A DNA stretch of 64,000 nucleotides from Rhodocyclaceae bacterium (GTDB lineage: Bacteria; Pseudomonadota; Gammaproteobacteria; Burkholderiales; Rhodocyclaceae), in the NCBI GenBank assembly GCA_046295975.1, contig JBKBMG010000004.1, positions 69,403 to 133,402 of the forward strand. The letters run 5' to 3'. Shown one piece after another: positions 5,347 to 48,762 of this stretch; the stretch's first letter is position 1, and every line of letters starts with the position of its first letter. Under the pieces are notes generated by a model that did not search any database, had not been told where the DNA came from, and saw nothing but the letters and a program-made list of their open reading frames with translations. The position numbers were made by a program, and so were the translations under genes.

Positions 5347-6666
5347 ATGAATGCACGCACAATCCCCAAGGCTGGAATGGCGCTGGCCCTATGCCTGGCG
5401 TTGGCCGGACACGGCCAAGCATACGAACTGTATGCCAATGAAGACACCCAACTGAACGCCGACGTGCTTGCGGTGTTCGGCTGGATGAAGAGCCGCAAGA
5501 ATTACGACGGCACCGCGGGCGGCTCCAATTGGCGCGAAGGTTTCGTCAAGTACGGAGTCAGCGGCCAGCAGGGTTTGCGCGGAGCAGGCACGCTTTATGG
5601 TGCCTTCAACCTGGTCAGTTCCGCTACCTGGGGGGATGGCGACGCGGGTGGCAATACCATCGGCACCGAGCGCACCACCAAGATCGAGGACGCTTACCTG
5701 GGCTGGCGCTCTGCCGAACTGCTGCCGGTACTGGGCAATGATGGTCTCGACATCTCCTTCGGTCGCCAGGTCGTGCAGTTGGGCAGTGGCTTTCTGATCA
5801 ACGACGATGGTCCGAACCTGGGCAAGGGGCCGGCGGACGGCGCGCTCAATCGGGGCAGTGCCTACTACCTGGCGGCGCGGCATGCCTTCGATCGTACGGC
5901 GGTGCTGCGCATCGGTGGGGAGGCGGGTCTGCATGGCACGCTGGCCTGGTTGAAGTCGGACAACCGCGCCCAGGCGGGGACAGAACTGGCCGCGGCCACT
6001 CTGGATTACCGTGGTCAGGCGGGTTTGCTGGGGGTGACCTGGGTGCATGGGCTTGACGTCAACGATGCCTGGGCCGACGAATTCCTACAGCAGCGTGATG
6101 GCATGAATGTCTACAGCCTGCGGGGTGAAGGCGACGCTGGTCTGGCGAATGCGAGCTTCGCCTTCGAGTACGCCTGGCAGAAGAAGGATGCCGGCAACGA
6201 AAGGGCCTGGTACGCAGAGGCCGGCTATACCTTTGCCGATGCCGCCTGGTCTCCGAGCCTGAGCTATCGCTACACCCGCTACTCGGAAGGTTGGGACGCG
6301 CTGTTCACCGGTCTGAACAGCCCGGAGTTGGGCACCTGGTTTCAGGGGGAGGTGGCGGCCAACTACGCCGGCATCTTTGCTCGCAACGTGGGTATCCAGC
6401 ACCTTGCACTGAAAGCGTACCCGAGGGAAAACCTGACGGTGGGCGCCTTGCTCTATGACCTCAAGACGCTGCGCGGACGGGGGGGGCGCAATCTGGACGC
6501 GCGGGAGTTGGACCTCTATGTAGAGTGGGTGGTAAGTGACAACTTCATTGTCACGCCATTGGTGGGCTTCTTCAAACCGAAGCGCAGCGAACACAACGGC
6601 GGTACGCAGGTCGGCGGAAACGGCACCAATTTCTATGCTCAAGTGGTTGTGGCGGTTCCGTTCTGA
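5347..6666 (+). CDS. Outer-membrane beta-barrel protein (alginate-export/porin-like)
   Basis: 439 aa. It has a signal peptide (MNARTIPKAGMALALCLALAGHGQA), alternating beta-strand-like composition rich in Y/G/W, and a C-terminal ...VVVAVPF aromatic residue typical of OMPs. The family assignment is from recollection only. Confidence 0.65.
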   Translation: MNARTIPKAGMALALCLALAGHGQAYELYANEDTQLNADVLAVFGWMKSRKNYDGTAGGSNWREGFVKYGVSGQQGLRGAGTLYGAFNLVSSATWGDGDAGGNTIGTERTTKIEDAYLGWRSAELLPVLGNDGLDISFGRQVVQLGSGFLINDDGPNLGKGPADGALNRGSAYYLAARHAFDRTAVLRIGGEAGLHGTLAWLKSDNRAQAGTELAAATLDYRGQAGLLGVTWVHGLDVNDAWADEFLQQRDGMNVYSLRGEGDAGLANASFAFEYAWQKKDAGNERAWYAEAGYTFADAAWSPSLSYRYTRYSEGWDALFTGLNSPELGTWFQGEVAANYAGIFARNVGIQHLALKAYPRENLTVGALLYDLKTLRGRGGRNLDARELDLYVEWVVSDNFIVTPLVGFFKPKRSEHNGGTQVGGNGTNFYAQVVVAVPF

Positions 6667-28702: not shown

Positions 28703-30193
28703 ATGGAGGTAATCGAAGTGTCAGACGAAAACAGCAGCGTGCTCAGCGAGTCGCTTTGGCGGGACAGCTTGTTCGATGGCGAATGGCGGGTGCCGAGCGG
28801 TGGCGGGCGGGCGGTGCTTGAGCCGGCCACCGGCGAGGTACTGACCAGTGTTGGTGTGGGCGACCCGTCGGATGTCGCGATGGCGGCGCGCAGCGCATCC
28901 GAAGCGCAAAAAGCCTGGCATGCGACGCCGCCGCGCGAGCGTGCCAACGTGTTCCATCGCGCCGCGGCGTTGATCGAGACCGAGGCCGCCGCACTGGCCA
29001 GCTGGATCGCCCGCGAGACCGGCGGGATCCTGCCCAAGGCCGAGCATGAGGTACGCGAGGCGGTCATCATCCTGCGCCGCGCGGCGGCCATGGTGCTGGA
29101 TCCGCAGCAAGGAATCGTGCTGCCGTCGGTGCCGGGGCGCCTCTCCTACGCCAAGCGCATGCCGCTGGGTGTGGTGGGCGTGATCTCGCCGTTCAACTTC
29201 CCCCTGATCCTGTCGATTCGCGCGGTGGCGCCGGCGCTGGCATCAGGCAACGCGGTGGTGCTCAAGCCCGATCTGCGCACACCGGTGACGGGTGGCTTCC
29301 TGATCGCGCGCGCCTTGCAACTGGCCGGACTGCCGGCGGGCCTGCTGCACGTGATACCGGGCGGGGCGGACGCGGGCGAGGCGCTGTGCACCGATCCGCA
29401 TGTGCGAATGATCGCATTCACCGGATCCACCGCGGTCGGGCGCCGCGTCGGTGAGCTTGCCGGCCGTCATCTCAAGAAGGTCATGCTCGAACTGGGCGGC
29501 AAGAACCCGCTGATCGTGCTCGAGGACGCCGATCTGGATCTGGCGGCAAGCAATGCGGCGTGGGGGGCCTGGTTGCATCAGGGCCAGATCTGCATGGCAT
29601 CGGGGCGGATTCTCGCCCATCAGTCGATTGCGGCGGAGCTCACCGAACGGCTGGTGAAGAAGGCGGCGATGCTGCCAGTCGGCGACCCCGCCAGCGCTGC
29701 GGTGGCGATCGGCCCGATTATCGACGAGCGCCAGCTCGAGCGGGTGGATGCCATTGTCCAGGACAGCGTCAAGGCCGGCGCGCGACTGGAAGCAGGGGGG
29801 CGGCGTGAGGGGCGTTACTACCTGCCGACCGTGCTGTCGGGCGTGCGGCCCGGCATGCGTGCGTTCCACGAGGAGTTCTTCGGCCCGGTGGCAAGCGTGA
29901 TCGCCTTTGCCGACGACGAGGAGGCGCTGGCCCTGGCCAACGACACCGAGTACGGCTTGTCGGCGGCGGTGATCTCACGTTCGGTCGGTCGCGCGATGGC
30001 GCTGGGCGATCGGCTGCAGGCCGGGATGGTGCATATCAACGACCAGACCGTCAATGATGAATGCACCAATCCCTTTGGCGGATGCGGTGCCTCGGGAAAT
30101 GGCGGCAGCATCGGCGGGCCGGCCGACCTGGACGAGTTCAGCCAGTGGCGATGGGTCACCGTCAAGGAGGCGCCGCCGGCCTACCCGTTCTGA
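28703..30193 (+). CDS. Aryl-aldehyde (benzaldehyde-type) dehydrogenase
   Basis: 496 aa from MEVIEVSDENS.... ALDH motifs ISPFNFP, FTGSTAVG, LELGGKNP and GQICMASGR. The C-terminal ...NDQTVNDECTNPFGGCGASGNG resembles XylC-type enzymes. Confidence 0.88.
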   Translation: MEVIEVSDENSSVLSESLWRDSLFDGEWRVPSGGGRAVLEPATGEVLTSVGVGDPSDVAMAARSASEAQKAWHATPPRERANVFHRAAALIETEAAALASWIARETGGILPKAEHEVREAVIILRRAAAMVLDPQQGIVLPSVPGRLSYAKRMPLGVVGVISPFNFPLILSIRAVAPALASGNAVVLKPDLRTPVTGGFLIARALQLAGLPAGLLHVIPGGADAGEALCTDPHVRMIAFTGSTAVGRRVGELAGRHLKKVMLELGGKNPLIVLEDADLDLAASNAAWGAWLHQGQICMASGRILAHQSIAAELTERLVKKAAMLPVGDPASAAVAIGPIIDERQLERVDAIVQDSVKAGARLEAGGRREGRYYLPTVLSGVRPGMRAFHEEFFGPVASVIAFADDEEALALANDTEYGLSAAVISRSVGRAMALGDRLQAGMVHINDQTVNDECTNPFGGCGASGNGGSIGGPADLDEFSQWRWVTVKEAPPAYPF

Positions 30194-34698: not shown

Positions 34699-37296
34699 TT
34701 GACCGACAACACCCGCGCCGGCCCTCCGCCGGCATCTCCGGGCGCGGAAGCGTTCCAGCGAGGCTCAGGCCCGATCCTGGAACGCTTCGTCTTCAATCAC
34801 CGCCCGCTCGTGCTGCTGCTGTGCCTGCTGCTCACCCTTGGTCTGGGCTGGCAGGCGAGCAGGCTGCAACTGAACGCCAGCTTCGAGAAGATGATTCCGA
34901 CCGGGCATCCGTTCATCGCCAATTTCCTCGCCAACCGCGCCGATCTGGCGGGGCTGGGCAACGCCCTGAGGGTGGCCGTGGCGGTGCGCGAGGGCAACAT
35001 CTTCACGGACGACTATCTGCGGACCCTGGCGCAGATCAACGACGAGCTCTATTTACTGCCGGGCGTGGACCGGCCCTACATGAAGTCGTTGTGGACCCCG
35101 GCCACCCGCTGGATCGCCGTCACCGAGGAAGGCCTGGACGGCGATACCGTCATCCCCGGCGACTACGACGGCTCGCCGGAAAGCCTTGAGCAGGTGCGCC
35201 TGAACGTACAGCGCTCCGGTGAGATCGGCCAACTGGTGGCGGAGGACTTCCGCTCCAGCATCGTCTATCTGCCGCTGCTCGACTTCGATCCGACCTCCGG
35301 CGCGCCGCTCGACTATGCCGAGTTCTCGCGCCAATTGGAGGAAATACGGGCCAAATACACCAACGACTACATCGACATCCACATCACCGGTTTCGCCAAG
35401 ATCGTTGGCGACCTGATCGACGGATTGCGTCAGGTGTTGCTGTTCTTCCTGCTGGCGGTGGCGATCGCTACCGCGGTGCTGTTCGCCTACACCCGCTCGC
35501 TGGGCAGCGCGTTGTTGGTGATCGCGTGCTCGCTGGTCGGGGTGTTGTGGCAGCTTGGTCTGCTCGCCACCTTCGGGCTCGCGATCGACCCCTACTCAGT
35601 GCTGGTGCCGTTTCTGGTGTTCGCCATTGGCGTAAGCCATGGCGCGCAGAAGATGAGTGGCGTGATGCAGGACATCGCCCGCGGCGTGCCGCGCTACGTT
35701 GCCGCGCGCCACACCTTCCGCCGGCTGTTCCGCACCGGCATGGCGGCGCTGGTTACCGACTCGGTGGGGTTCGCCGTGCTGCTGGTGATTGACATCGGCG
35801 TGATCCGCGAACTGGCGATGACCGCCAGCCTCGGCGTGCTGGTACTCATCCTCACCAACCTGGTGCTGCTGCCGGTGTTGCTGTCCTACTTCGGCACTGG
35901 CCGTCATTCCGCCGCGCGCGGTGCACGTGCGCTTGCAGATGCTGCGGGCGAGGGCGGCACGGGGGCGTGGAAAACGCTGCCGGAGACGGGTGCGATGGCC
36001 CGTCTGTGGGCCACGCTCGCCCGCTTCACCGCGCGCGGCCCGGCAACGTGCGCACTGGCGGTGGCTGCCGGGTTGGCGGTGCTGGGGGTGAGCGTGGGCA
36101 AGCACGTGCAGATCGGCGACCTCGACCCGGACGCGCCCGAACTGCGCGCCGATTCGCGCTACAACCGCGATTCGGCTTTCATGGTGGACAGCTACGCCGC
36201 CAGTGCCGACATCTTCGTCGTCATGGTGGAAACCCCTGTGGACGGCTGCACCCGCTACGAAGTGTTGTCGCGGGTGCGGGCGCTTACCGGGCGGCTCGAC
36301 CAGTTGCCCGGTGTCGAGAGCACCAATTCCATGGCCAAGCTGTCGCGCTTCGCGATGGTCGGATACAACGAAGGCAACTTCAAATGGCTGGAGCTGATCC
36401 CCAACGATGCCGCCCTCGGCGCCGTGCAGACGCGCGCCCCGCGCGAACTGCTCAACCAGGACTGCAGCCTGCTGTCGATCTACGTCTATCTGCAGGACCA
36501 CAAGGCCGCCACCCTCGCGCGGGTGGTCGAGACGGTCGAGGCCTTCGCCCGCGAGCACGATGACGACACCACCCGCTTTCTGCTTGCGGCCGGCAACGCC
36601 GGCATCGAGGCCGCGACCAACATCGTGGTGGAACGTGCGATGCGGCAGATGCTGTACCTCGTGTATGGCGTGGTGATCGTACTGTGCTGGCTCACCTTCC
36701 GAAACTGGCGCGGTGTGGTGGTCGCGGTGCTGCCGCTGATGCTCACCTCGGTATTGTGCGAGGCCTTGATGGTTGCGCTGGGCATGGGCGTGAAGGTCGC
36801 CACGCTGCCGGTGGTGGCGCTGGGCGTGGGAATCGGCGTGGATTATGCGCTGTACGTGTTGTCGGTGGTGCTGGCCGGCATGCGCGAGGGGATGAGCCTG
36901 GCCGATGCCTATCGCCGCGCGCTGCGTTCCACCGGTCAGGTGGTGCTGCTCACCGGCGCCACACTCGCCGCCGCGGTGGCCACCTGGGTGTTCTCGCCGA
37001 TCAAGTTCCAGGCCGACATGGGCATCCTGCTGGCCTTCATGTTCCTGCTCAACATGCTCGGTGCACTCATCCTGCTGCCGGCGCTCGCCCACTTCCTGCT
37101 GCGTCCGGTGGCGGTCACGGGCCTCAGCAGCGCCGCCGCCGCGATGACCGATGCAGGGCCTTCGGACCCGACGCTTGCCCCCGATACCCGCCCCAATCTC
37201 CATCCCAACCCAGAGCAGGACGATACCCCCGCGCTTCTCAGGAGATCCCAAGATGCCCGCCACAACGCTGGACAACCAGCTTCTGAAACTGCTTGA
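34699..37296 (+). CDS. RND-superfamily (COG1033/MMPL-type) inner-membrane transporter
   Basis: About 865 aa with two blocks of about 6 transmembrane helices, each following a large soluble loop. A TTG start at 34699 lies 6 nt after AAGGAG. The alternative ATG at 34561 would overlap the upstream gene by 38 nt. Confidence 0.82.
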   Translation: MTDNTRAGPPPASPGAEAFQRGSGPILERFVFNHRPLVLLLCLLLTLGLGWQASRLQLNASFEKMIPTGHPFIANFLANRADLAGLGNALRVAVAVREGNIFTDDYLRTLAQINDELYLLPGVDRPYMKSLWTPATRWIAVTEEGLDGDTVIPGDYDGSPESLEQVRLNVQRSGEIGQLVAEDFRSSIVYLPLLDFDPTSGAPLDYAEFSRQLEEIRAKYTNDYIDIHITGFAKIVGDLIDGLRQVLLFFLLAVAIATAVLFAYTRSLGSALLVIACSLVGVLWQLGLLATFGLAIDPYSVLVPFLVFAIGVSHGAQKMSGVMQDIARGVPRYVAARHTFRRLFRTGMAALVTDSVGFAVLLVIDIGVIRELAMTASLGVLVLILTNLVLLPVLLSYFGTGRHSAARGARALADAAGEGGTGAWKTLPETGAMARLWATLARFTARGPATCALAVAAGLAVLGVSVGKHVQIGDLDPDAPELRADSRYNRDSAFMVDSYAASADIFVVMVETPVDGCTRYEVLSRVRALTGRLDQLPGVESTNSMAKLSRFAMVGYNEGNFKWLELIPNDAALGAVQTRAPRELLNQDCSLLSIYVYLQDHKAATLARVVETVEAFAREHDDDTTRFLLAAGNAGIEAATNIVVERAMRQMLYLVYGVVIVLCWLTFRNWRGVVVAVLPLMLTSVLCEALMVALGMGVKVATLPVVALGVGIGVDYALYVLSVVLAGMREGMSLADAYRRALRSTGQVVLLTGATLAAAVATWVFSPIKFQADMGILLAFMFLLNMLGALILLPALAHFLLRPVAVTGLSSAAAAMTDAGPSDPTLAPDTRPNLHPNPEQDDTPALLRRSQDARHNAGQPASETA

Positions 37297-38242
37297 ACAA
37301 GGTCGCGCACTGGGCGTGCCCGACTTCGCCGACCTGCCCCCGGCCGCGGCGCGCGAAGTCTACCGCATGCTGGTGACCACCCATGATGCGCCGGCCATCG
37401 ACCTGCCGGTTGAAGATCGGGCGATTCCCGGCCCGGGCGGTGAACTGGCACTGCGCATCTATCGCCCGCCGGGCGACGTGGTGCCGCGCGGCGCAGTGCT
37501 GTACCTGCACGGCGGCGGCTTTGTGGTCGGTTGCCCCAACGACTACGACGGTCTGGCGCGCAGCCTGTGCGCACAAAGCGGCTGCGTGCTGGTGCTGCCG
37601 GACTATCGCCTGGCGCCCGAGCATCTGTTTCCCGCCGCGGTGGAAGATGCGTGGGCGGCGCTGGCGTGGTTGGCGGCAAATGCCGACGAGATCGGCTGCG
37701 TCGACGCGGACGGTCAGGCCCGCATCGCGGTTGCTGGCGACAGTGCCGGCGCCAACCTCGCCGCCGTGTGTGCGCTGCTCGCGCGCGACCGGGGCGGCCC
37801 GGCGCTTTGCCAGCAAACGCTGATCTATCCGGTGACCGTGGTGGATGGCGCGCGCTTCGAATCCCGCCGCACCTATGGTGAAGGGCTCACCCTGAGCACG
37901 CGCTCCATGCACTACTTCACCTCCCATTACCTGGGCAGCGAGGACTTTCTGAACAGCGACCACGTGCGCGACTTCCGCGCCGCGCCGCTGGAGGCGGCTG
38001 ATCTCTCCGGCGTGGCGCCGGCGCTGGTGCTGGTGGCGGGCTTCGACCCCTTGCGCGACGAGGGCGTGGCCTATGCCAGCGCCCTGCAGACTGCCGGCAG
38101 CGACGCGGTGCTGATCGAGTACGCCGGGCTGGCCCACGGCTTCATCAACATGTCGGGCACGGTGGAAGCGGCGCGGCTGGCCGTGGCCCAGGTCGCCAAT
38201 GCCTGGCGTCACGCGCTTGCTGCGCCGGGAACAGGCCAATGA
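37253..38242 (+). CDS. Alpha/beta-hydrolase esterase (HSL / family IV)
   Basis: 329 aa with the oxyanion motif LHGGGFVVG and the nucleophile elbow GDSAGANL. The start overlaps the RND gene by 44 nt and has an AGGAG Shine-Dalgarno sequence. Confidence 0.88.
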   Translation: MPATTLDNQLLKLLEQGRALGVPDFADLPPAAAREVYRMLVTTHDAPAIDLPVEDRAIPGPGGELALRIYRPPGDVVPRGAVLYLHGGGFVVGCPNDYDGLARSLCAQSGCVLVLPDYRLAPEHLFPAAVEDAWAALAWLAANADEIGCVDADGQARIAVAGDSAGANLAAVCALLARDRGGPALCQQTLIYPVTVVDGARFESRRTYGEGLTLSTRSMHYFTSHYLGSEDFLNSDHVRDFRAAPLEAADLSGVAPALVLVAGFDPLRDEGVAYASALQTAGSDAVLIEYAGLAHGFINMSGTVEAARLAVAQVANAWRHALAAPGTGQ

Positions 38243-38270
38243 GCGGCTTCGAGACATCCGGTGTAGTGGC

Positions 38271-38310
38271 CGGTGGCGGCGGTGGCCGCAACCAGCCACC
38301 GCCGCCACCG
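38271..38310 (+). other. Perfect 16-bp GC-rich stem-loop within the operon
   Basis: 'cggtggcggcggtggc' (38271-38286) pairs with 'gccaccgccgccaccg' (38295-38310) across an 8-nt loop. Translated, it gives the odd GGGGGRNQPPPPP peptide. Confidence 0.7.
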
Positions 38311-38322
38311 ACCACGCGCGCT

Positions 38323-39348
38323 GTGCGCTTTCACCGGCTTGGCGGTCCGGAGGTGTTGCAGATCGAAACCGTCACGCTGGCGCCGCCGGGTCCGGGCGAG
38401 GTCTGCATCCGCGTCGAGGCGCTGGGGTTGAACCGGGCTGAGGCGGCGTTTCGTGGCGGACACTACCTGGAGCTACCGAATCTGCCGTCGGGGCTGGGCT
38501 ATGAGGCGGCCGGCGTGATCGTGGCCTTGGGGCCGGATGTGCCGGGCTTCGCGCCTGGTGATCCGGTCTGCGTGCTGCCGGCGATCTCGATGACACGCCA
38601 TCCGCTGCAGGCCGAATACGCGGTGGTGCCGGCCAGCGCATTGGTGGCGCGCCCCGCAGGTCTGGACGCACCGCAGGCGGCGGCGCTGTGGATGGCGGCA
38701 CTGACCGCCTACGGTGGCCTGGTCGACATTGGCAAGCTCGGTCCAGGGGACGGGGCGATCGTCACCGCGGCCTCCAGCAGCGTCGGCATCGCCGCGTTGC
38801 AGCTTGCGCGCGCGCTCGGTGCGATCCCGATCGCGCTTACCCGGGACCCGGGCAAGGTCGAGGCCTTGCGCCGCCATGGTGCCGAGCACGTCATCGTCGG
38901 CACGCCGGACGCAACCCTCGCCAGCCGCGTTGCAGCCGTTACCGGCGGCCTCGGGGCGCGTCTGGCCTTCGATCCGGTGGCCGGGCCCACGGCCCTGCCG
39001 CTGGCGGCGGCGCTGCGTCGCGGCGGTACGCTGGTGGTGTACGGCAACCTCGGCGGTGAGGCCGAGCACACCCCGTTTCCGTTCTACGCGGCGGTCGGCA
39101 AGGGACTGAGCATGCGCGGCTACCTGGTGTTCGAACTGCTCGCTGACGCGCGACGCCTGGCGGCGGCGCGCGGATTCATCGAATTGGCGCTGGCCGCTGG
39201 CACGCTGTTTCCGGTCATCGACCGGGTCTTTCCGTTCAACGACATCGTGGGTGCCTACCGTCATCTGGAGTCGAACGCCCAGGTCGGCAAGGTGGTGGTC
39301 AGCCTGGATCACGGCGGCGCCCCGTTCACCCCCGAGGAGCATTCATGA
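38323..39348 (+). CDS. NADPH:quinone oxidoreductase-like medium-chain reductase
   Basis: MDR fold with RFHRLGGPEVLQIETV...PGPGEVCIRVEALGLNRAE and GSSVGIAALQLA. The start was taken as GTG 38323, downstream of the hairpin. ATG 38239 (ATGA overlap with the esterase stop) is the alternative and would add 28 Gly/Pro-rich residues. Confidence 0.8.
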   Translation: MRFHRLGGPEVLQIETVTLAPPGPGEVCIRVEALGLNRAEAAFRGGHYLELPNLPSGLGYEAAGVIVALGPDVPGFAPGDPVCVLPAISMTRHPLQAEYAVVPASALVARPAGLDAPQAAALWMAALTAYGGLVDIGKLGPGDGAIVTAASSSVGIAALQLARALGAIPIALTRDPGKVEALRRHGAEHVIVGTPDATLASRVAAVTGGLGARLAFDPVAGPTALPLAAALRRGGTLVVYGNLGGEAEHTPFPFYAAVGKGLSMRGYLVFELLADARRLAAARGFIELALAAGTLFPVIDRVFPFNDIVGAYRHLESNAQVGKVVVSLDHGGAPFTPEEHS

Positions 39349-40487
39349 CTACCCATTCGATCGATTCCCCGAGCCTGACCATTCGTGCGGCGGTGGCCCG
39401 TGCCCACCATGCACCGCTGAATCTCGAAACCCTGACCCTGGAGGCGCCGCGCGATGATGAGATCCTGGTGCGCGTGGTGGCCACCGGGGTATGCCACACC
39501 GACATCGTGGTGCGCGACGGCATGCTGCCGACGCCACTGCCGGTGGTGCTGGGCCACGAGGGGGCGGGCGTGGTGGCGCGTGTCGGCCTCGCGGTGACCA
39601 AGGTCGCGCCCGGCGACCACGTGGTGATGAGCTTCAATTCCTGCGGCGCCTGCCCGAGTTGTGCTGACCACGCGCCCAGCTACTGCCACGAGTTCTTTCC
39701 GCGAAATTTCTTCGCCACGCGCAGCGATGGCAGTACTGCGCTGTCGCGGGAAGGTGAGCCGGTACATGGCAATTTCTTCGGCCAGTCCTCTTTCGCCTCC
39801 CATGCCTTGTGCCATGAGCGCAATGTCGTGAAGGTACCTGCCGACGTGCCGCTGCGCCTGCTCGGGCCGCTGGCCTGCGGCGTGCAGACCGGGGCCGGTG
39901 CGGTGATGAACGCGCTTCGGGTTGGCCCTGGGCGCAGCTTCGCGGTGTTCGGTGCGGGTTCGGTGGGGCTGTCGGCGGTGATGGCGGCGCGGGCGGTCGG
40001 TGCGAGCCGGATCATCGCGGTCGACCTCAATCCGGACCGACTCGCCTTCGCGCGGGAGATCGGCGCCACCGACAGCGTGGACCCGCGCACCACCAATGCC
40101 ACGGCCGAGATCATGCGCCTGACCGGTCACGGGGTGGACTACGCGCTGGACACCACCGGCCTGGCATCGGTCATCCGTGGCGCGGTCGAAAGCCTGGCGC
40201 CGCGCGGTGCCTGCGGCCTGCTTGGCGCATCCGGCCCGGGCAGTGAGGTCGTGCTCGACGAGGTGCATTTCATGAGTGGTGGCCGTCGCCTGATCGGCAT
40301 TGTCGAAGGCGATGCCCAGCCCGACCTGTTCATTCCCGAACTGATCCGCCTCTATCAGGCTGGCCGCTTCCCCTTCGACAAGATGGTGAAGTACTACCCT
40401 TTCGAGCGCATCAACGACGCCATCGCCGATTCGGAAAGTGGCCGGACGATCAAGCCGGTCGTGGTGATGGACGAGCGCGCTCAGTAA
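39345..40487 (+). CDS. Zn-dependent aryl-alcohol (benzyl-alcohol-type) dehydrogenase
   Basis: 380 aa containing GVCHTDIVVRDG, LGHEGAGVV, the structural-Zn cysteines (CGACPSCADHAPSYC) and GAGSVGLSAV. GAGGAG Shine-Dalgarno sequence, with an ATGA overlap with the upstream stop. Confidence 0.9.
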   Translation: MTTHSIDSPSLTIRAAVARAHHAPLNLETLTLEAPRDDEILVRVVATGVCHTDIVVRDGMLPTPLPVVLGHEGAGVVARVGLAVTKVAPGDHVVMSFNSCGACPSCADHAPSYCHEFFPRNFFATRSDGSTALSREGEPVHGNFFGQSSFASHALCHERNVVKVPADVPLRLLGPLACGVQTGAGAVMNALRVGPGRSFAVFGAGSVGLSAVMAARAVGASRIIAVDLNPDRLAFAREIGATDSVDPRTTNATAEIMRLTGHGVDYALDTTGLASVIRGAVESLAPRGACGLLGASGPGSEVVLDEVHFMSGGRRLIGIVEGDAQPDLFIPELIRLYQAGRFPFDKMVKYYPFERINDAIADSESGRTIKPVVVMDERAQ

Positions 40488-40960
40488 TGAGCGGGGTCAT
40501 CGACCAGTTTGCGCAGCGCCCCGAGCATGGTGCGCAACTGGTCGTGCAAGGTGTCGCGTGCCGCGTCCGGCAACGCGGCCAGCATCGCTTGCTCGATGGC
40601 CGCGACCGCCGCGTCGCAGTCGACCAGCAGGGCATGGCCGGCGGCGGTGACGCGGATGCGCACGATGCGCCCGTGGCTGGCATCCGGTTCGCGGGCAATC
40701 CAGCCGCGGGCCTCCATGGTCTTCACCATCTCGTTGGCGGCCTGCGGCGATACCAGGGAACGTTCGGCCAACTGCGCGTTGGAAAGATGTTCGTGCGCGG
40801 CGAGCGCGGACAAGGCCGTGTATTGATTGGTTGTCAGGCCATAGGGCGCCAGCGCATCGCGGATGCGGCGGCTGAGCACATGGTCCACACGCCCGACCAG
40901 GTAGGCGATTCCGATAGGGCGAACCAATTGCGAGTCGATATTTTTCGAGATTTTTTTCAT
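40481..40960 (-). CDS. MarR-family transcriptional regulator, divergent from ech-vdh-fcs
   Basis: 159 aa with the winged-HTH region LTTNQYTALSALAAHEHLSNAQLAERSLVSPQAANEMVKTMEARGWI. Confidence 0.88.
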   Translation of the reverse strand: MKKISKNIDSQLVRPIGIAYLVGRVDHVLSRRIRDALAPYGLTTNQYTALSALAAHEHLSNAQLAERSLVSPQAANEMVKTMEARGWIAREPDASHGRIVRIRVTAAGHALLVDCDAAVAAIEQAMLAALPDAARDTLHDQLRTMLGALRKLVDDPAHY

Positions 40961-41007
40961 TGAAGACGGGCTGGCAGGTTGGAAAGCCGACGTATAGAAT
41001 CAGTCGT

Positions 41008-41026
41008 ATATCAAGTAACCTGATAT
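41008..41026. promoter_or_regulatory. Pseudo-palindrome ATATCA-N7-TGATAT in the MarR/ech intergenic region (candidate operator)
   Basis: Seen directly within an AT-rich 89-bp divergent region. Confidence 0.35.
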
Positions 41027-41049
41027 TAACCTGAAACAGGCGGGCAAAC

Positions 41050-41883
41050 ATGGCTAATTATGAAGGACGTTGGAGCACGGTAAAGGTCGAGGTGGAAGAG
41101 GGGGTCGCCTGGGTGACGCTGAACCGCCCCGAGAAACGCAATGCGATGAGCCCGACGCTCAACCGCGAGATGGGCGAGGTGCTCGACGCCATCGAACTGG
41201 ATGACGACGCCCAGGTACTGGTGCTCACCGGTGCCGGCGAGGCCTGGTCGGCCGGCATGGACCTCAAGGAATACTTCCGCGAAACCGACGGCAAGTCCGA
41301 GATCATGCAGGAGCGCATGCGCCGCGATTGCTCTCACTGGCAATGGAGGGTGCTGCGCTTCTACACCAAGCCCACCATCGCCATGGTCAACGGCTGGTGC
41401 TTCGGCGGGGCGTTCTCGCCGTTGGTGGCCTGCGATCTCGCCATCGCGGCGGACGAGGCGGTGTTCGGCCTGTCCGAAATCAACTGGGGCATTCCGCCGG
41501 GCAACCTGGTGAGCAAGGCGGTGGCCGACACCATGGGGCATCGCGCGGCGCTGCATTATGTGATGACCGGCAACACCTTCACCGGCGTGGAAGCGGCCCA
41601 GATGGGGCTGGTGAACAAGAGCGTGCCACGCGAACGCTTGCGCGACGAGGTCAAGGCGCTGGCCGGCAAGTTGCTGGAGAAGAACCCGGTGGTGCTGCGC
41701 TTCGCCAAGCACGGTTTCAAGCGCTGCCGCGAACTGACCTGGGAACAGAACGAGGACTACCTCTACGCCAAGGTGGACCAGTCCAATGGGCGCGACCCGG
41801 AAAAAGGTCGCCAGCAGGGGCTGAAGCAGTTCCTCGACGACAAGACCATCAAGCCGGGGCTGCAGACCTACAAGCGCGGCTGA
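41050..41883 (+). CDS. ech: Hydroxycinnamoyl-CoA (feruloyl-CoA) hydratase/lyase
   Basis: 277 aa starting MANYEGRWSTVKVEVEEGVAWVTLNRPEKRNAMSPTLNREM.... It also contains TGAGEAWSAGMDLKEYFRE and KPTIAMVNGWCFGGAFSPLVACDLAI. It is near-colinear with Pseudomonas HCHL. Confidence 0.95.
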   Translation: MANYEGRWSTVKVEVEEGVAWVTLNRPEKRNAMSPTLNREMGEVLDAIELDDDAQVLVLTGAGEAWSAGMDLKEYFRETDGKSEIMQERMRRDCSHWQWRVLRFYTKPTIAMVNGWCFGGAFSPLVACDLAIAADEAVFGLSEINWGIPPGNLVSKAVADTMGHRAALHYVMTGNTFTGVEAAQMGLVNKSVPRERLRDEVKALAGKLLEKNPVVLRFAKHGFKRCRELTWEQNEDYLYAKVDQSNGRDPEKGRQQGLKQFLDDKTIKPGLQTYKRG

Positions 41884-41972
41884 GTTTCCGGCGTTCCAAC
41901 GCCTAGAACAAGATCGTCCGGACCGGGGTGGTCCGAGACGGCATGGATCAACCACCGATGGAGGACTGGACG

Positions 41973-43562
41973 ATGTACGAATGCAATCTGTTGATCGGCG
42001 GCGCCGATCGTGCCGCGGCCGGCGGCGCCACCTTCAACCGGATCGACCCGGTCAGCGGCGAGGTGGCGACCCGTGCCGCAGCCGCCACCGTGGCCGATGC
42101 CCAGGCCGCGGCCGAGGCTGCGCGCGCCGCTGCGCCGGCTTGGGCTGCCCAGCCGCCGGCGGCACGCCGTGCGCTGCTGCTCAAGGCAGCCGACGTGCTC
42201 GAGGCCAAGGCGCCCGAGTTCATTGCCCGCGGTGTCGCCGAGGCGGGCGGTGCGCCGGGCTGGTACGGCTTCAACGTCATGCTGGCCGCGAGCATGTTGC
42301 GCGAGGCCGCCAGCATGACCACCCAGGTCACCGGCGAGACCATTCCCTCCAACGTGCCCGGCTGCTTCGCCATGTCGCTGCGCCAGCCGGTGGGCGTGGT
42401 GCTGGGCATCGCGCCGTGGAATGCGCCGCTCATCCTCGGTGTGCGCGCAATCGCGATGCCGCTGGCCTGCGGCAACAGCGTGGTGCTGAAAGCCTCGGAA
42501 ACCTGCCCGGCGCTGCACCGGCCGGTGGGCGTGGTGCTGGGCATCGCGCCGTGGAATGCGCCGCTCATCCTCGGTGTGCGCGCAATCGCGATGCCGCTGG
42601 CCTGCGGCAACAGCGTGGTGCTGAAAGCCTCGGAAACCTGCCCGGCGCTGCACCGGCTGATCGGCACGGTGTTCGAAGAGGCCGGCTTCCCGGCCGGCGT
42701 GGTGAACGTGGTCACCAATGCGCCGGACGACGCCCCCGCGGTGGTCGAAGCCTTGATCGCACACGATGCGGTGCGGCGGGTGAATTTCACCGGTTCCACC
42801 CATGTGGGCCGGATCATCGCGCAGATGGCCGCGCGCCACCTGAAGCCGGTGCTGCTGGAGTTGGGCGGCAAGAATCCGCTGGTGATCCTGCACGATGCCG
42901 ATCTCGACGAAGCGGTGCAGGCGGCCGCCTTTGCGGCGTTCTTCAATCAAGGCCAGATCTGCATGTGCACCGATCGCATCATCATTGATCGCAGGATCGC
43001 GGATGCCTTCGTCGACAAGCTCGCATCCAAGGCCAGGACACTCGCGGCCGGCACACCGGGTGCAGAGGGCGCGGTCCTCGCCGCGATGGTCGACGCGCGG
43101 GCGGCAGAACGCGTGCGTGGGCTGGTGGACGATGCGGTTGCCAAGGGCGCGCGCCTGCCGCTCGGGCCGCTGCAGATCGACGGCGCCATCATGCAGCCGG
43201 TGATGCTCGACGGCGTCACCGCCGAGATGCGCTTCTATGCCGAGGAGTCTTTCGGCCCGGTGGTCGGGATCGAGCGCTTCGACGACGAGGCCGAGGCGTT
43301 GCGCCTGGCCAACGACAGTGAATACGGGCTGTCGGCGGCGGTGTTCAGCCGCGATGTCGCGCGTGCGCTGGAATTTGCCAAACGGGTGGAGTCGGGCATC
43401 TGCCACGTCAATTCTTCCACCGTCGCCGACGAGGCGCAGATGCCGTTCGGCGGTGTGAAGGCGAGCGGTTACGGGCGCTTCGGCGGCAAGGCGGCGATCG
43501 ACGCATTCACCGAGTTGCGCTGGATCACGCTGCAGACCACGCCGCGCCACTACCCGGTGTAA
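41973..43562 (+). CDS. vdh: Vanillin/aryl-aldehyde dehydrogenase carrying an internal 45-aa tandem duplication
   Basis: 529 aa from MYECNLLIGG..., with GGAGG upstream. ALDH motifs APWNAP, FTGSTHVG, LELGGKNP and GQICMCTDR are present. The segment PVGVVLGIAPWNAPLILGVRAIAMPLACGNSVVLKASETCPALHR occurs twice in tandem. Without it the protein would be 484 aa, the normal length. Confidence 0.85.
   Translation: MYECNLLIGGADRAAAGGATFNRIDPVSGEVATRAAAATVADAQAAAEAARAAAPAWAAQPPAARRALLLKAADVLEAKAPEFIARGVAEAGGAPGWYGFNVMLAASMLREAASMTTQVTGETIPSNVPGCFAMSLRQPVGVVLGIAPWNAPLILGVRAIAMPLACGNSVVLKASETCPALHRPVGVVLGIAPWNAPLILGVRAIAMPLACGNSVVLKASETCPALHRLIGTVFEEAGFPAGVVNVVTNAPDDAPAVVEALIAHDAVRRVNFTGSTHVGRIIAQMAARHLKPVLLELGGKNPLVILHDADLDEAVQAAAFAAFFNQGQICMCTDRIIIDRRIADAFVDKLASKARTLAAGTPGAEGAVLAAMVDARAAERVRGLVDDAVAKGARLPLGPLQIDGAIMQPVMLDGVTAEMRFYAEESFGPVVGIERFDDEAEALRLANDSEYGLSAAVFSRDVARALEFAKRVESGICHVNSSTVADEAQMPFGGVKASGYGRFGGKAAIDAFTELRWITLQTTPRHYPV
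42386..42655 (+). repeat. Perfect direct tandem duplication, 2 x 135 bp, in frame within vdh
   Basis: 42386-42520 is identical base-for-base to 42521-42655, checked by hand. The junction is ambiguous by 2 nt ('gc'). Confidence 0.97.
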
Positions 43563-43578
43563 GCGGGGCGCGACATCC

Positions 43579-45444
43579 ATGACTGCATCGAACCGACAAG
43601 CCTTCGCCGGCTATCGGGCGGTGTCCATCGGCTCCGCGCCGGTGGACGTCCGCAGCGAGGCCGGCGAAGGCGGCACGATCTGGTATCTGCGCTGCACCGA
43701 GCCCCTGCAGGCACATCCGCTGCGATTGACCGACTGCCTGATCGAGGGCGCCGGGCGCCACCCCGAGCGCACCCTGGTGGCGCGCCGGGGGGCGGACGGC
43801 GAATGGGTGCGCATCTGTTACGCCGACATGCTCGCCCGTGCCCGCGCCATCGGGCAGGCCTTGCTTGAGCGCGGGTTGTCACCCGAGCGGCCGTTGCTCA
43901 TCCTGTCGGGCAACGACCTTGAGCATCTGCAGCTGGCGCTTGGGGCCATGCTGGCGGGCGTGCCGTACTGCCCGATGTCGCCGGCCGCATCGCTGGTGTC
44001 GTCCGACTTCGGCAAGCTGGCGCATGCCTTGTCCTTGCTCACGCCCGGCATGGTCTACGCGACCGAGGGCGAGGCCTACGCCCGCGCGATCCGCGCCAAG
44101 GTGCCGGAATCGGTGGAGGTCGTGGTGGGGCAGGGCGCGGTCGACGGCCGTTCGTGCACGCATCTGGACGAACTACTGGCCACCGTGCCGCGCGACATCG
44201 ACGCGGTGCACCACGGGCTTGGCCCCGACACCATCGCCAAGTTCCTGTTTACCTCGGGCTCGACCAAGCTGCCCAAGGCCGTCACCACCACCCACCGCAT
44301 GCTCTGCGCCAATCAGCAGATGCTGCTGCAGACCTTTCCGTGCTTCGGCGAGGTGCCGCCGGTATTGGTCGACTGGCTCCCGTGGAACCACACCTTTGGC
44401 GGCAGCCACAACGTTGGCATCGCGCTTTACAACGGTGGCAGCTACTACATCGACGATGGGCGGCCGACGCCACAGGGCATGGCGGAGACCTTGCGCAACC
44501 TGCGCGACGTCGCACCCACCGTATTCTTCAACGTGCCCAAGGGGTGGGAGCTGCTCACCGAGGCGCTGGAGCAGGATGCGGCGCTGCGCGACACCTTTTA
44601 TTCGCGTGTGAAGATGTTCCTGTTTGCCGGTGCGGGATTGTCGCAGGCCGCCTGGGACCGCCTTGAGCGGGTGAGCGAGGCGCACTGCGGCGAGCGCATC
44701 CGCATCATGAGCGGGCTGGGCATGACCGAGACCTCGCCGTCATGCACCTTCACCACCGGACCCGAGATTCGCGCGGGCTACGTCGGCCTGCCGGTGCCGG
44801 GCTGCGAGGTCAGGCTGGTGCCGGTCGACGGCAAGCTTGAGGCGCGCTTCCGCGGGCCGCACGTGATGCCGGGCTACTGGCGGGCGCCGGAGCAGACCCA
44901 CGAGGCCTTCGATGGGGCGGGCTTTTATCGCACAGGGGATGCGCTGAAGTGGGTGGACGTCGAGCGCCCCGAGCTGGGCCTGCTGTTCGACGGCCGGATT
45001 GCCGAGGACTTCAAGCTCTCGTCCGGCACTTTTGTCAGCGTCGGGCCGCTGCGCGCACGCCTCATCAGCGAGGGCGCACCCTATGTACAGGATGTGGTGG
45101 TGACCGGCATCAACCGCGACGACATCGGCGTGATGATCTTCCCGCGTTTGGAGCATTGCAGCCGTCTGGCCGGTTTGTCGGCCGACGCGCCGGCGCACGA
45201 GATTCTTGCCGCCGCCCCGGTGCGGACCTGGGCTGCCAATCTGCTCGCCCGCGCCAACCAAGGTGCAACCGGTTCCGCCAGTCGTGTCGCGCGGTTGCGC
45301 CTGCTGGAGGAAGCACCGGCGATCGATGCCGGCGAAATCACCGACAAGGGCTCGATCAACCAACGAGCGGTACTGGCACGCCGTGCCGCCCTGGTCGAGG
45401 CCATGTACGACGGCAGCGATCCGCATACCCTCACGATCGCCTGA
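43579..45444 (+). CDS. fcs: Feruloyl-CoA synthetase (AMP-forming acyl-CoA ligase family)
   Basis: 621 aa with the AMP-binding motif FTSGSTKLPKAV and TGD..K in the C-terminal part. It lies immediately downstream of ech-vdh. The size and N-terminal region resemble Pseudomonas Fcs. Confidence 0.88.
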   Translation: MTASNRQAFAGYRAVSIGSAPVDVRSEAGEGGTIWYLRCTEPLQAHPLRLTDCLIEGAGRHPERTLVARRGADGEWVRICYADMLARARAIGQALLERGLSPERPLLILSGNDLEHLQLALGAMLAGVPYCPMSPAASLVSSDFGKLAHALSLLTPGMVYATEGEAYARAIRAKVPESVEVVVGQGAVDGRSCTHLDELLATVPRDIDAVHHGLGPDTIAKFLFTSGSTKLPKAVTTTHRMLCANQQMLLQTFPCFGEVPPVLVDWLPWNHTFGGSHNVGIALYNGGSYYIDDGRPTPQGMAETLRNLRDVAPTVFFNVPKGWELLTEALEQDAALRDTFYSRVKMFLFAGAGLSQAAWDRLERVSEAHCGERIRIMSGLGMTETSPSCTFTTGPEIRAGYVGLPVPGCEVRLVPVDGKLEARFRGPHVMPGYWRAPEQTHEAFDGAGFYRTGDALKWVDVERPELGLLFDGRIAEDFKLSSGTFVSVGPLRARLISEGAPYVQDVVVTGINRDDIGVMIFPRLEHCSRLAGLSADAPAHEILAAAPVRTWAANLLARANQGATGSASRVARLRLLEEAPAIDAGEITDKGSINQRAVLARRAALVEAMYDGSDPHTLTIA

Positions 45445-45475
45445 GGCCGCAAGGTCATCAAGCCGCGGAGCCAGA

Positions 45476-46354
45476 ATGGATTTCGACGCCCTGGAAGCGA
45501 TCGACGTGCACGTGCACGCCGAGGTCTCGTGCCGTTGTCCGGCCGACGACTTCGGCAAGGAATTCGACGAGGCGGCCGAGCGCTACTTCGGTTTTCAACA
45601 CCGCCCGACGATTGCCGAAACCATCGCTTACTACCGTGCGCGCAAGCTGGGTCTGGTGATGTTCACCGTGGACGCCGAGTTCGAGACGGGGCGGCGGCGC
45701 ATTCCCAACGAGGAAATCGCCGAAGCGGCCCGGGCCAATCGCGACATGATGATCGCCTTCGCCAGCATCGATCCGCACAAGGGCAAGATGGGGCTGCGCG
45801 AGGCGCGACACCTGATCGAAACCTACCGCGTCGGTGGGTTCAAGTTCCATCCGACGGTGCAGGGCTTCTTTCCCAACGACCGGATGGCCTACCCACTCTA
45901 TGAACTGATTGCCGCCCATCGCCTGCCGGCAATCTTCCATAGCGGTCATTCGGGCATCGGCACCGGCATGCCGGGCGGTGGCGGACTGCGCCTGAAGTAC
46001 TCCAATCCGATTCATCTGGACGATGTCGCGGCGGATTTCCCGGACATGAAGATCGTCATCGCTCACCCTTCCTGGCCTTGGCAGGACGAGGCCTTGTCGG
46101 TCTGCCTGCACAAGCCCAATGTTTTTATCGACCTGTCCGGCTGGTCGCCCAAGTACTTTCCGCCGCAACTGGTGCAATACGCCAACACCCGCCTGCGCGA
46201 CCGCATGTTGTTCGGCTCCGACTTTCCCTTGATCACGCCCGAGCGCTGGATTGCCGACTTCGATACAGCGGGTTTTCGGCCAGACGTCAAGCCGTTGATC
46301 TTCAAAGAGAACGCCAGACGTCTGCTGGCGGACTCGGCGGCGGAACGGGAGTGA
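45476..46354 (+). CDS. Amidohydrolase-2 family metal-dependent hydrolase/decarboxylase
   Basis: 292 aa starting MDFDALEAIDVHVHAE..., with FKFHP, FHSGHSG, AHPSWPW and FGSDFP (TIM-barrel amidohydrolase pattern). Confidence 0.8.
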   Translation: MDFDALEAIDVHVHAEVSCRCPADDFGKEFDEAAERYFGFQHRPTIAETIAYYRARKLGLVMFTVDAEFETGRRRIPNEEIAEAARANRDMMIAFASIDPHKGKMGLREARHLIETYRVGGFKFHPTVQGFFPNDRMAYPLYELIAAHRLPAIFHSGHSGIGTGMPGGGGLRLKYSNPIHLDDVAADFPDMKIVIAHPSWPWQDEALSVCLHKPNVFIDLSGWSPKYFPPQLVQYANTRLRDRMLFGSDFPLITPERWIADFDTAGFRPDVKPLIFKENARRLLADSAAERE

Positions 46355-46477
46355 ATGATGTCCGGGAATGCGTTCGTCCGCAGCACTGATCGGCGCAATC
46401 GGAGGAATTGAGTCATAGATATAACATAATGTAGGATATCAAACTGAGATCACCTGTCGCTGCGAAGGAGTCTTCGT

Positions 46478-47422
46478 TTGAGCTTTCTTGCCTTATTCGT
46501 CAGCCTTCCCACCAAGGCGTCGACCGGCCGCATGCGTGTCTGGCGCTCTGTCAAGGCGCTGGGTTGCGCGACGCTGCGCGATGGGGTCTACGTGCTACCC
46601 GACTCGGTGGACAGTGCCGCGACGCTCAACGAAGTGGCAGCGCACGCGGTGGAAGCGGGGGGGAGCGGTGAGGTCTATCGACTCTCGGGGTGTGACGAAT
46701 TTCAGGAAGCCGCGCTACGCGCGCTGTTCGACCGGGGGGAGGAGTACGCCAGCATCGCCGAGGAGATCAAAGCGCTCGGGCGAAGTCTGGCATCGCTGGA
46801 CGATGGCGCCGCCGCACGCAAGCTCCAGCCGCTCGTGCGTCGGTTCGAACAGGTCACAGGCATCGATTTTTTCCCCGGGGAGGCGCAGCGGCAGACCTTG
46901 AGCCTGCTGGATGACCTGCGCGACGCGATCACCCGCCGTATGTCGCCCGACGAGCCGACCGCCCGGCAGGCGGGTATTCCGCGATTGGACCGTGCCGACT
47001 ATCAGGGCCGGACCTGGGCCACGCGGGCACGCCCGTGGGTGGACCGACTTGCCTCCGCCTGGCTGATCCGGCGGTTCATCGACCGGAGCGCGCACATCGT
47101 CTGGCTGGCAAGTCCCGCCGACTGCCGCGACGGCTGGCTCGGCTTCGATTTCGACGGCGCGGTCTTCAGCCACGTCGACACCAAGGTCACCTTCGAGACG
47201 CTACTGACGAGTTTCGCACTCGATTCGACTCCCGCGCTGGTCCGGGTGGGGGAACTGGTGCATTGCCTGGACGTAGGAGGGCTCCCGGTCGCGGAAGCGC
47301 CAGGCGTTGAATCACTGCTTGCGGGCTTGCGCGCATCCGAACCCGATGACGACGCGCTGCTCGCCCGCGCGTGCGAACTCTTCGACTGGCTGCTGAAGAG
47401 CTATGAGGAAATATCAGCGTGA
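46478..47422 (+). CDS. chrB: Chromate resistance regulator ChrB
   Basis: 314 aa. The N-terminus ...LPTKASTGRMRVWRSVKALGCATLRDGVYVLP is typical of ChrB. TTG start 7 nt after AAGGAG. Confidence 0.85.
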   Translation: MSFLALFVSLPTKASTGRMRVWRSVKALGCATLRDGVYVLPDSVDSAATLNEVAAHAVEAGGSGEVYRLSGCDEFQEAALRALFDRGEEYASIAEEIKALGRSLASLDDGAAARKLQPLVRRFEQVTGIDFFPGEAQRQTLSLLDDLRDAITRRMSPDEPTARQAGIPRLDRADYQGRTWATRARPWVDRLASAWLIRRFIDRSAHIVWLASPADCRDGWLGFDFDGAVFSHVDTKVTFETLLTSFALDSTPALVRVGELVHCLDVGGLPVAEAPGVESLLAGLRASEPDDDALLARACELFDWLLKSYEEISA

Positions 47423-48762
47423 ACTCCCAGACCCGATCACAACTACGGCCCGCCCACCCCCCGTTCCGGGAGGCCTTCGCCTATTGGCTGAAACTTGGCT
47501 TCATCAGCTTCGGTGGTCCAGCCGGGCAGATCGCCATCATGCATCAGGAGTTGGTAGAGAAGCGCCGCTGGATTTCCGAGCATCGCTTCCTGCACGCGCT
47601 CAATTACTGCATGCTGCTGCCCGGCCCCGAAGCTCAGCAACTGGCCATCTATATCGGCTGGTTGCTGCACCGTACCTGGGGTGGCATCGTCGCCGGTGTC
47701 CTGTTCGTGCTGCCTTCGCTCTTCATCCTCGCGGCGCTCACCTACGTCTACCTGGCCTTTGGTGACGTCTCGTACGTGCGGGGGGTGTTCAACGGCATCA
47801 AGCCGGCGGTAGTGGCCATCGTGGTGTTCGCCGCCTGGCGCATCGGCTCGCGTGTGTTGAAGAACAGCGCTTTGTGGGCGCTGGCGGTCCTGTCCTTCAT
47901 CGCGATCTTCGTCTTCAGGGTACCCTTTCCCTATATCGTTGTCGCAGCCGGCGTCCTGGGTTTCATCGGCGGCAGGGTGGCTCCCGACAAGTTCAAGGTC
48001 GGCGGTGGCCATGGCGCTTCGGACAAGGGCTACGGGCCAGCCGTCATCGACGACGACACGCCCCCCATGGCGCATACGCGCTTTCGCTGGCCCTACCTCA
48101 TCACGCTCTTGGTGGCGGCGCTCGTAACCTGGGTCGCAGCCATGGCCTTGCTGGGGCAGCCGGTCTTGAAGGATATGGGCGCGTTCTTCACGAAGGCGGC
48201 ACTCGTCACCTTCGGTGGCGCCTACGCGGTGCTGCCCTATGTCTATCAGGGCGGCGTGGAGCACTACCAGTGGCTGACCGGTACGCAGATGATCGACGGC
48301 CTGGCCTTGGGTGAGAGTACGCCGGGGCCGCTCATCATGGTCGTGTCTTTCGTTGGTTTCGTCGGCGCCTGGACCAAGGAGATCTTCGGGCCCGATGCCT
48401 TGCTGCTGGCCGGCTTCGCGGGCGCCTCCGTGGCCACTTTCTTCACCTTCCTGCCCAGCTTCGTCTTCATCCTGGCCGGCGCACCCCTGGTGGAGTCCAC
48501 CCACGGCGACCTGAAGTTCACCGCGCCACTCACCGGCATCACCGCCGCCGTGGTCGGGGTGATTGTGAACCTCGCGCTGTTCTTTGCTTATTACGTGCTT
48601 TGGCCCCAAGGCTTCGAAGGGCCCTTCGACACCGTTTCTGCACCGATCACCGTAGCCGCGGCCATCGCCCTGCTGCGCTTCAAGCGTGGCGTGATCGAAA
48701 CATTACTCGGCTGCGCGGTTATTGGCTTTGCCGCACAGCTCTTGACGACAGGTGTGACATGA
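47419..48762 (+). CDS. chrA: Chromate ion transporter ChrA (two CHR domains)
   Basis: 447 aa containing FREAFAYWLKLGFISFGGPAGQIAIMH...MLLPGPEAQQLAIYIGW. The second half has LVTFGGAYAVLPYV...LGESTPGPL. GTGA overlap with the chrB stop. Confidence 0.92.
   Translation: MNSQTRSQLRPAHPPFREAFAYWLKLGFISFGGPAGQIAIMHQELVEKRRWISEHRFLHALNYCMLLPGPEAQQLAIYIGWLLHRTWGGIVAGVLFVLPSLFILAALTYVYLAFGDVSYVRGVFNGIKPAVVAIVVFAAWRIGSRVLKNSALWALAVLSFIAIFVFRVPFPYIVVAAGVLGFIGGRVAPDKFKVGGGHGASDKGYGPAVIDDDTPPMAHTRFRWPYLITLLVAALVTWVAAMALLGQPVLKDMGAFFTKAALVTFGGAYAVLPYVYQGGVEHYQWLTGTQMIDGLALGESTPGPLIMVVSFVGFVGAWTKEIFGPDALLLAGFAGASVATFFTFLPSFVFILAGAPLVESTHGDLKFTAPLTGITAAVVGVIVNLALFFAYYVLWPQGFEGPFDTVSAPITVAAAIALLRFKRGVIETLLGCAVIGFAAQLLTTGVT

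Follow-up and report, generated by a model that had tools for sequence, protein, structure and literature searches.

A perfect in-frame 135-bp tandem duplication inside the vanillin dehydrogenase gene of a Rhodocyclaceae bacterium, probably young and microhomology-mediated

We analyzed a 64,000-nucleotide stretch of the genome of a Rhodocyclaceae bacterium (assembly GCA_046295975.1, contig JBKBMG010000004.1, positions 69,403 to 133,402; hereafter the window), in which vdh, a vanillin dehydrogenase gene of the aldehyde dehydrogenase (ALDH) family, carries an internal tandem duplication. The gene occupies 41973..43562 on the + strand and encodes 529 amino acids, or 484 when the duplication is collapsed. 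It sits between the hydratase/lyase and CoA-synthetase genes of a cluster with the order marR-ech-vdh-fcs. Upstream, ech (41050..41883, +) encodes p-hydroxycinnamoyl-CoA hydratase/lyase (HCHL), the vanillin-making step, and its product scores 495 bits against the NCBIfam equivalog NF006588 (cutoff 276). Downstream lies an fcs-like gene for an acyl-CoA synthetase of the feruloyl-CoA synthetase type (43579..45444, +; PF00501); because its PRK12582 score of 682 bits falls short of the 777 cutoff, we infer the feruloyl substrate of this ligase and do not assign it firmly. A gene for a MarR-family regulator (40481..40960, −), recognized by Pfam MarR matches on an identical protein, is divergent to the cluster.

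The vdh product matched Pfam PF00171 (Aldedh) over its full length (E=1.1e-160, 535.6 bits), with the match split into two stretches by the repeat. It also matched the PDB entries 6qhn, a salicylaldehyde dehydrogenase (E=2e-193), and 9ihb, deposited as vanillin dehydrogenase (E=2.2e-187), and both structures aligned twice to the duplicated segment, each time through their chain residues 130-169. None of the NCBIfam equivalog models reached its cutoff with the Vdh product. The predicted function, and with it the name vanillin dehydrogenase, is well supported by the classical ech-vdh-fcs arrangement; the assignment made in a preliminary description of this DNA, an ALDH/Vdh gene in an ech-vdh-fcs cluster, thus holds on the Pfam, PDB, and NCBIfam matches. 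The gene start is over-called in the protein collection (539 aa, start at 41943), and the longest open reading frame would give 544 aa (GTG at 41928). Because a ribosome-binding site, GGAGGA (41960..41965, +), lies 7 nt upstream of ATG 41973, and because the 484-aa homologues share the N-terminus MYECNLL, which is common to all homologues and corresponds to a start at this ATG, we take 41973 as the true start, and the product has 529 rather than 539 or 544 residues.

Window positions 42386-42520 and 42521-42655 are identical at 135 of 135 bases, as the preliminary description had stated, and the identity reaches 2 bp beyond the right end of the unit, so that the two copies form a 137-nt exact direct repeat with a period of 135. 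Tandem Repeats Finder called 2.1 copies at 42376-42657. The arrangement is a head-to-tail duplication, from one copy to two, with no spacer in between. This is the sole exact repeat of at least 40 bp in the window. We also scanned the whole assembly (5.44 Mb, 118 contigs) for perfect tandem duplications with periods of 12-600 bp, and found no other with a period above 36 bp; the runners-up had periods of 36 and 33 bp.

The reading frame is preserved across the repeat. Copy 1 (42386..42520, +) encodes residues 139-183, with N150, K173, and E176, and copy 2 (42521..42655, +) encodes residues 184-228, with N195, K218, and E221; the two segments are the same 45 codons, PVGVVLGIAPWNAPLILGVRAIAMPLACGNSVVLKASETCPALHR, confirming the in-frame 45-aa second copy that had been described. 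Because the duplication is in frame, it introduces no frameshift or premature stop upstream of fcs. In an alignment of 37 sequences (A3), N195, K218, and E221 fall in invariant columns, together with the catalytic residues E296 of the ELGGK motif (codon 42858..42860, +) and C330 of the GQICMC motif (codon 42960..42962, +), while N150, K173, and E176 form an extra set. Both catalytic motifs downstream of the repeat had been called intact, and both are.

A single copy of the segment is the rule among relatives. All of the 120 best among 8000 scored homologues are 479-493 aa long, apart from the window's own protein. Orthologous loci in the genomes of other species are single copy in 80 of 80 cases, with a span of ~1443-1452 nt, and family-level relatives match the duplicated region one time only. 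The nearest relative is a protein (P0002) encoded on a 10.6-kb Logan contig, L024, from run SRR13362312, with 474 of 484 residues identical (98%). This contig has one copy of the segment, the same gene order as the window (marR-ech-vdh-fcs-amidohydrolase-chrB), and DNA that is 90-95% identical. Two synonymous differences from L024 are common to both window copies, which places the event after the split from L024, on the window's own terminal branch. On these comparisons the duplication is unique to one strain and evolutionarily very young, and the earlier suggestion of a very recent slippage event fits both the undiverged copies and the single-copy orthologues. In a collection of 15 billion proteins we found no independent duplicated or collapsed allele of the strain; the cluster of the duplicated protein has one member, as does the nearest 484-aa cluster.

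The DNA identity to L024 is not uniform along the contig. Over the part upstream of mid-vdh (37005-42522) it is 89.6%, and further downstream (42511-47745) it rises to 94.9%, a step that may reflect different constraint or a recombination boundary.

We examined the ends of the unit for traces of its origin. Two similar 25-nt stretches lie at an offset of 135 and are 17/25 identical, in the window and also in single-copy L024: a proximal arm, TCGCTGCGCCAGCCGGTGGGCGTGG (42375..42399, +), and a distal arm, GCGCTGCACCGGCTGATCGGCACGG (42645..42669, +), both of the form CGCTGC-n-CC-n-GC. Against a genome-wide null, boundary homology of this degree has P=2.9e-4, with 0.03% of genome positions doing as well. 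The novel junction (42510..42534, +) reads GCGCTGCACCG followed directly by GCCGGTGGGCGTGG, that is, the left part of the distal arm and the right part of the proximal arm, and is an exact hybrid of the two, joined at their shared GC. The sequence entering the unit is TCGCTGCGCCA followed by GCCGGTGGGCGTGG, the sequence leaving it is GCGCTGCACCG followed by GCTGATCGGCACGG, and the junction can also be written as GCTGCACCG followed by GCCGGTGGG. The perfect microhomology (MH) arm is the 2-bp GC, found at 42386-42387, 42521-42522, and a third time at 42656..42657 (+), which gives the pattern MH-X-MH-X-MH. A recent preprint (10.64898/2026.02.28.708716) classes a tandem duplication with a perfect arm of ≥1 bp as a microhomology-mediated tandem duplication (MTD), a class to which this arm length conforms.

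These features suggest a simple route. The single-copy ancestor already had both 25-nt arms, set 135 bp from each other. In the course of replication, the growing 3' end would have finished copying the distal arm, paired anew with the proximal one, and copied the 135 nt between them again, so that the arms were fused at their common GC. We infer this slippage or template-switch step from the junction. Taken together, we favor a real, very young MTD in vdh that probably damages the enzyme and should be revertible, and we put the probability of this reading at about 0.75. The mutation is ordinary in kind, and ~76,000 strain-variable tandem duplication loci have been counted in microbial genomes (10.64898/2026.02.28.708716); it is slightly unusual in that a buried beta-alpha-beta core element was duplicated, not a loop or linker. 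RecA-independent deletion is documented for direct repeats of <200 bp (PMC7145654), and reversion to wild type for MTDs (PMC8639346). A perfect tandem repeat of 135 bp should therefore be intrinsically unstable and should collapse precisely to the wild-type allele at a high rate.

To assess the junction independently of the submitted assembly, we used the Logan k=31 assembly of run SRR31360865, in which the strain was located through exact-protein look-ups and is 100% identical to the window. We predicted beforehand that, if the repeat was present in the reads, the upstream contig would end at 42415 and encode a truncated product of residues 1-147. In that case two 31-mers can follow the one that ends at 42657 and two can precede the one that starts at 42386, so that breaks are expected at 42415 and 42628; the region contains 107 repeated 31-mers in the duplicated allele and 0 in the collapsed one, and the boundary 30-mers are found nowhere else in the genome. 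The Logan contig L108 (1031 bp) is 100% identical to window 41385-42415, ends 30 nt into the repeat, and carries the predicted 147-aa product. Contig L105 is identical to window 42628-48235 at 5608 of 5608 positions and at its start takes in the last 30 nt of the 137-nt repeat. A bubble caused by strain single-nucleotide polymorphisms (SNPs) was considered and rejected: with SNPs of the L024 type (42410 and 42626) the contigs would have broken at 42409 and 42627, whereas the observed breaks lie at 42415 and 42628. Because the k=31 contigs break exactly at both predicted bases, we concluded from the break points that the raw reads contain junction k-mers, a result that does not depend on the submitter's assembler.

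The fcs-like protein is likewise identical in this run. Contigs L106 and L108 overlap by only 11 nt inside ech (41385-41395), compared with the 30 nt expected at a graph branch, which suggests a local coverage gap and a modest depth of the strain in SRR31360865.

The junction in the reads could also stem from a minority allele, present in a subpopulation and promoted to the consensus by loop traversal while the dominant allele is single copy, since a mixture and a population in which every cell has the duplication yield the same de Bruijn graph. Newly arisen MTDs are usually subclonal (PMC8639346; 10.64898/2026.02.28.708716), and the smallest contig of 2915 bp, together with the fragmented Logan contigs, hints at a metagenome bin, where mixtures are common. 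However, the junction path outlasted graph cleaning in two assemblers (k=121 and k=31), which disfavors a very rare variant, and public assemblies usually report the major haplotype (10.64898/2026.02.28.708716). We regard a minority allele as unlikely, though it retains some weight.

What the duplication does to the enzyme was approached by structure prediction. In the AlphaFold2 (AF2) model of the single-copy relative, the unit comprises the strand 142-146, the helix 152-165, the strand 169-173, and the first turn of the helix 179-192; these elements make up the first beta-alpha-beta of the cofactor-binding domain, followed by a single turn of the helix after it. The content ascribed to the segment earlier, a PWNAP Asn and a VLKASE Lys and Glu within a strand-helix-strand, agrees with this. 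By the conserved landmarks Asn169, Lys192, and Glu195, the unit corresponds to ALDH2 residues 158-202, a stretch that starts at the point of return of the oligomerisation hairpin into the domain. When AF2 models the 529-aa protein, copy 2 occupies its native place in the Rossmann core, with a predicted local distance difference test (pLDDT) score of 74-98, and copy 1 is left unmodelled (pLDDT ~24); homologues, too, align to copy 2. The rest of the model is unchanged from the single-copy control. Low AF2 confidence in the hairpin (118-138) and near the C-terminus (490-515) was considered as a sign of duplication damage and rejected, the same dips being present in the control.

The insert thus repeats 45 residues, among them the oxyanion-hole Asn and the Lys and Glu that contact NAD. 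Copy 2 most likely holds the native position, and copy 1, which is strongly hydrophobic, would be extruded at the base of the oligomerisation hairpin. The grand average of hydropathy (GRAVY) is 0.92 for the unit and 0.32 for the whole protein. Among the thousands of homologues scored, none tolerates an insertion at the duplicated site. Given this intolerance and the hydrophobic core character of copy 1, we lean towards a 529-aa enzyme that would be destabilized or inactive, making the allele a hypomorph or a null.

Alternatively, the duplication might be a tolerated or even adaptive variant. The 529-aa enzyme would then fold and work, perhaps with altered properties, or the repeat would be a selected, reversible on/off switch between a crippled 529-aa and an active 484-aa form, by which a population could hedge between oxidizing vanillin and sparing it. 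The frame and all catalytic residues are kept, AF2 holds the remaining fold at high confidence, and MTDs can give rise to reversible phenotypes (PMC8639346). Against this stand the hydrophobic core element inserted at a domain junction and its absence from all of those homologues, and we saw no sign of recurrence or selection. We consider a rapidly reversible switch, or a 529-aa protein that still folds, very unlikely. If the protein did fold, it would be a natural example of a Rossmann-type domain that accommodates an additional beta-alpha-beta unit.

A technical artefact would require an assembler or scaffolder error, such as an undeleted overlap or a spurious loop, or else a template-switch chimera formed and duplicated in the library polymerase chain reaction. 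The two copies show zero divergence, and the allele is known from one assembly only, with its one-member cluster. A search of Joint Genome Institute (JGI) metagenome contigs with the 33-nt junction gave 0 matches, a result that is uninformative as the species is barely sampled there. Template switching in vitro likewise favors microhomology. The form of the submitted assembly argues otherwise. The commonest end overlap of the submitter's contigs is 121 bp, and gaps consist of 10 N or 100 N, which indicates a de Bruijn assembly with a final k of 121; the 135-bp period matches neither this k nor k-1. The contig carrying the repeat (C4) is free of N gaps, and ~38 kb separate the repeat from the nearest contig end. 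An undeleted k-mer or contig overlap was rejected on these grounds, the repeat not being at a scaffold join, and a systematic habit of the assembler was rejected because 5.44 Mb hold no other tandem duplication with a period above 36 bp. Moreover, k=31 breaks at both predicted bases require junction k-mers seen repeatedly in the reads, and a co-occurring strain SNP would have broken the contigs elsewhere. An assembler artefact, which the preliminary description had kept as one of its alternatives, is now unlikely, and the chance of a technical origin of any kind is slim.

Repeats did leave marks elsewhere in the assembly, outside the window. A perfect minisatellite with a 15-bp period stands at two contig ends (C26:1-99 and C60:1-121), and these ends overlap in steps of 15 (31, 46, ... 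106 bp); apparently a long 15-bp array broke the assembly there. Two 100-N gaps (C10:53236-53335 and C96:671-770) are flanked by 13-bp-period arrays (108 nt) on C10 and by 121-nt exact repeats ~2 kb apart on C96; both look like repeats that the scaffolder failed to resolve.

An old inherited two-repeat architecture, with copies kept identical by gene conversion, would be compatible with the perfect identity taken alone, but this possibility, which the preliminary description had also raised as an old, tolerated feature, is effectively refuted by homologues of 479-493 aa, by a single copy in every orthologue (80/80 loci and the 98%-identical relative with the same gene order), and by the same lineage-specific synonymous changes in both copies.

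Several points weigh against a young, damaging MTD and temper our confidence in it. Run SRR31360865 may be the genome's own source data, so that the Logan evidence is independent of the assembler and not necessarily of the sample. The contig breaks fix neither the fraction of the allele nor a copy number above 2, and the short loop contigs expected to carry the junction (a 45-aa unit, and a 54-aa unit plus junction) were not in the Logan records, probably because they have no gene calls. The perfect microhomology is only 2 bp, and the DNA folding propensity of the unit is not unusual (z = -0.24), which leaves hairpin-assisted slippage without support. On the protein side, the AF2 preference for copy 2 is biased by the alignment, AF2 is insensitive to destabilization, and the functional consequence is a prediction from structural reasoning.

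We next considered the phenotype. The genome encodes at least 13 other ALDH paralogues, the closest of which is 43% identical to Vdh (window 29003-30187, +). This paralogue lies in a neighboring sigma54-controlled operon for aromatic esters, alcohols, and aldehydes and is a candidate backup for vanillin oxidation. Pseudomonas putida KT2440 still failed to accumulate vanillin after deletion of vdh, seven further aldehyde dehydrogenases, and a reductase (PMC12102074). Because of this result and the at least 13 paralogues, vanillin accumulation is doubtful as a phenotype of the duplication; other aldehyde dehydrogenases probably buffer it. An annotation would best mark this vdh as a probable hypomorph or variable allele, without crediting the strain through it with an intact ferulate-to-vanillate step, and the ferulate/vanillin phenotype of the strain may depart from what its gene content predicts. 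The locus adds one more natural case of microhomology-mediated tandem duplication, and the approach offers a check on tandem duplications that needs no read mapping and relies on predicting where an independent small-k assembly breaks and which truncated gene product results.

The ech-vdh-fcs cluster as a whole (41050-45444) has no orthologue in four other species of the same genus (G001-G004), which gave weak paralogue matches only, and is found in some other genera of the family at ~70% DNA identity. Because of this distribution, the cluster looks like an accessory trait within the genus.

The closest parallels are the described MTD systems (Dan et al., 2021, PNAS, PMC8639346; Wei et al., 2026, 10.64898/2026.02.28.708716; PMC13167724), which share with vdh an exact head-to-tail duplication of a single-copy segment flanked by short homology in the MH-X-MH-X-MH pattern. 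The vdh repeat is also strain-specific, in the manner of a 'variable TD locus', lies in frame within a coding sequence, and would be expected to revert precisely. It differs in that its perfect arm is only 2 bp, inside a 17/25 imperfect homology, and its 135-bp unit is long compared with the other perfect tandem duplications of this genome (≤36 bp). In the vdh case, both formation and reversion are proposed events.

Engineered internal repeats in tetA (pSTL57, 101 bp, Escherichia coli; PMC7145654 and the Lovett papers cited there) have been used to measure RecA-independent deletion. They resemble vdh in being an internal tandem duplication of ~100 bp, which in tetA makes a null allele and is removed by precise deletion that restores the gene. 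The tetA repeats are engineered and plasmid-borne with a measured phenotype, whereas the vdh repeat is natural, chromosomal, and known as a sequence.

Within the Vdh/salicylaldehyde dehydrogenase branch of the ALDH family (PDB 9ihb, 6qhn, and 4jz6; the Pseudomonas ech-vdh-fcs cluster, PMC12102074), the window's protein shows full-length homology (E=2e-187 to 2e-193), the catalytic Cys and Glu, and the operon partners HCHL and CoA ligase. All solved or sequenced relatives have one copy of the segment corresponding to residues 139-183, whereas this allele has two. Repeat-mediated in-frame duplications inside an enzyme gene that arise within strains are also described for KPC beta-lactamases, where they are reported to diversify the enzymes and raise drug resistance (PMC12593533); in vdh, by contrast, the duplicated element is predicted to be a buried beta-alpha-beta, and loss of function would be the more likely outcome.

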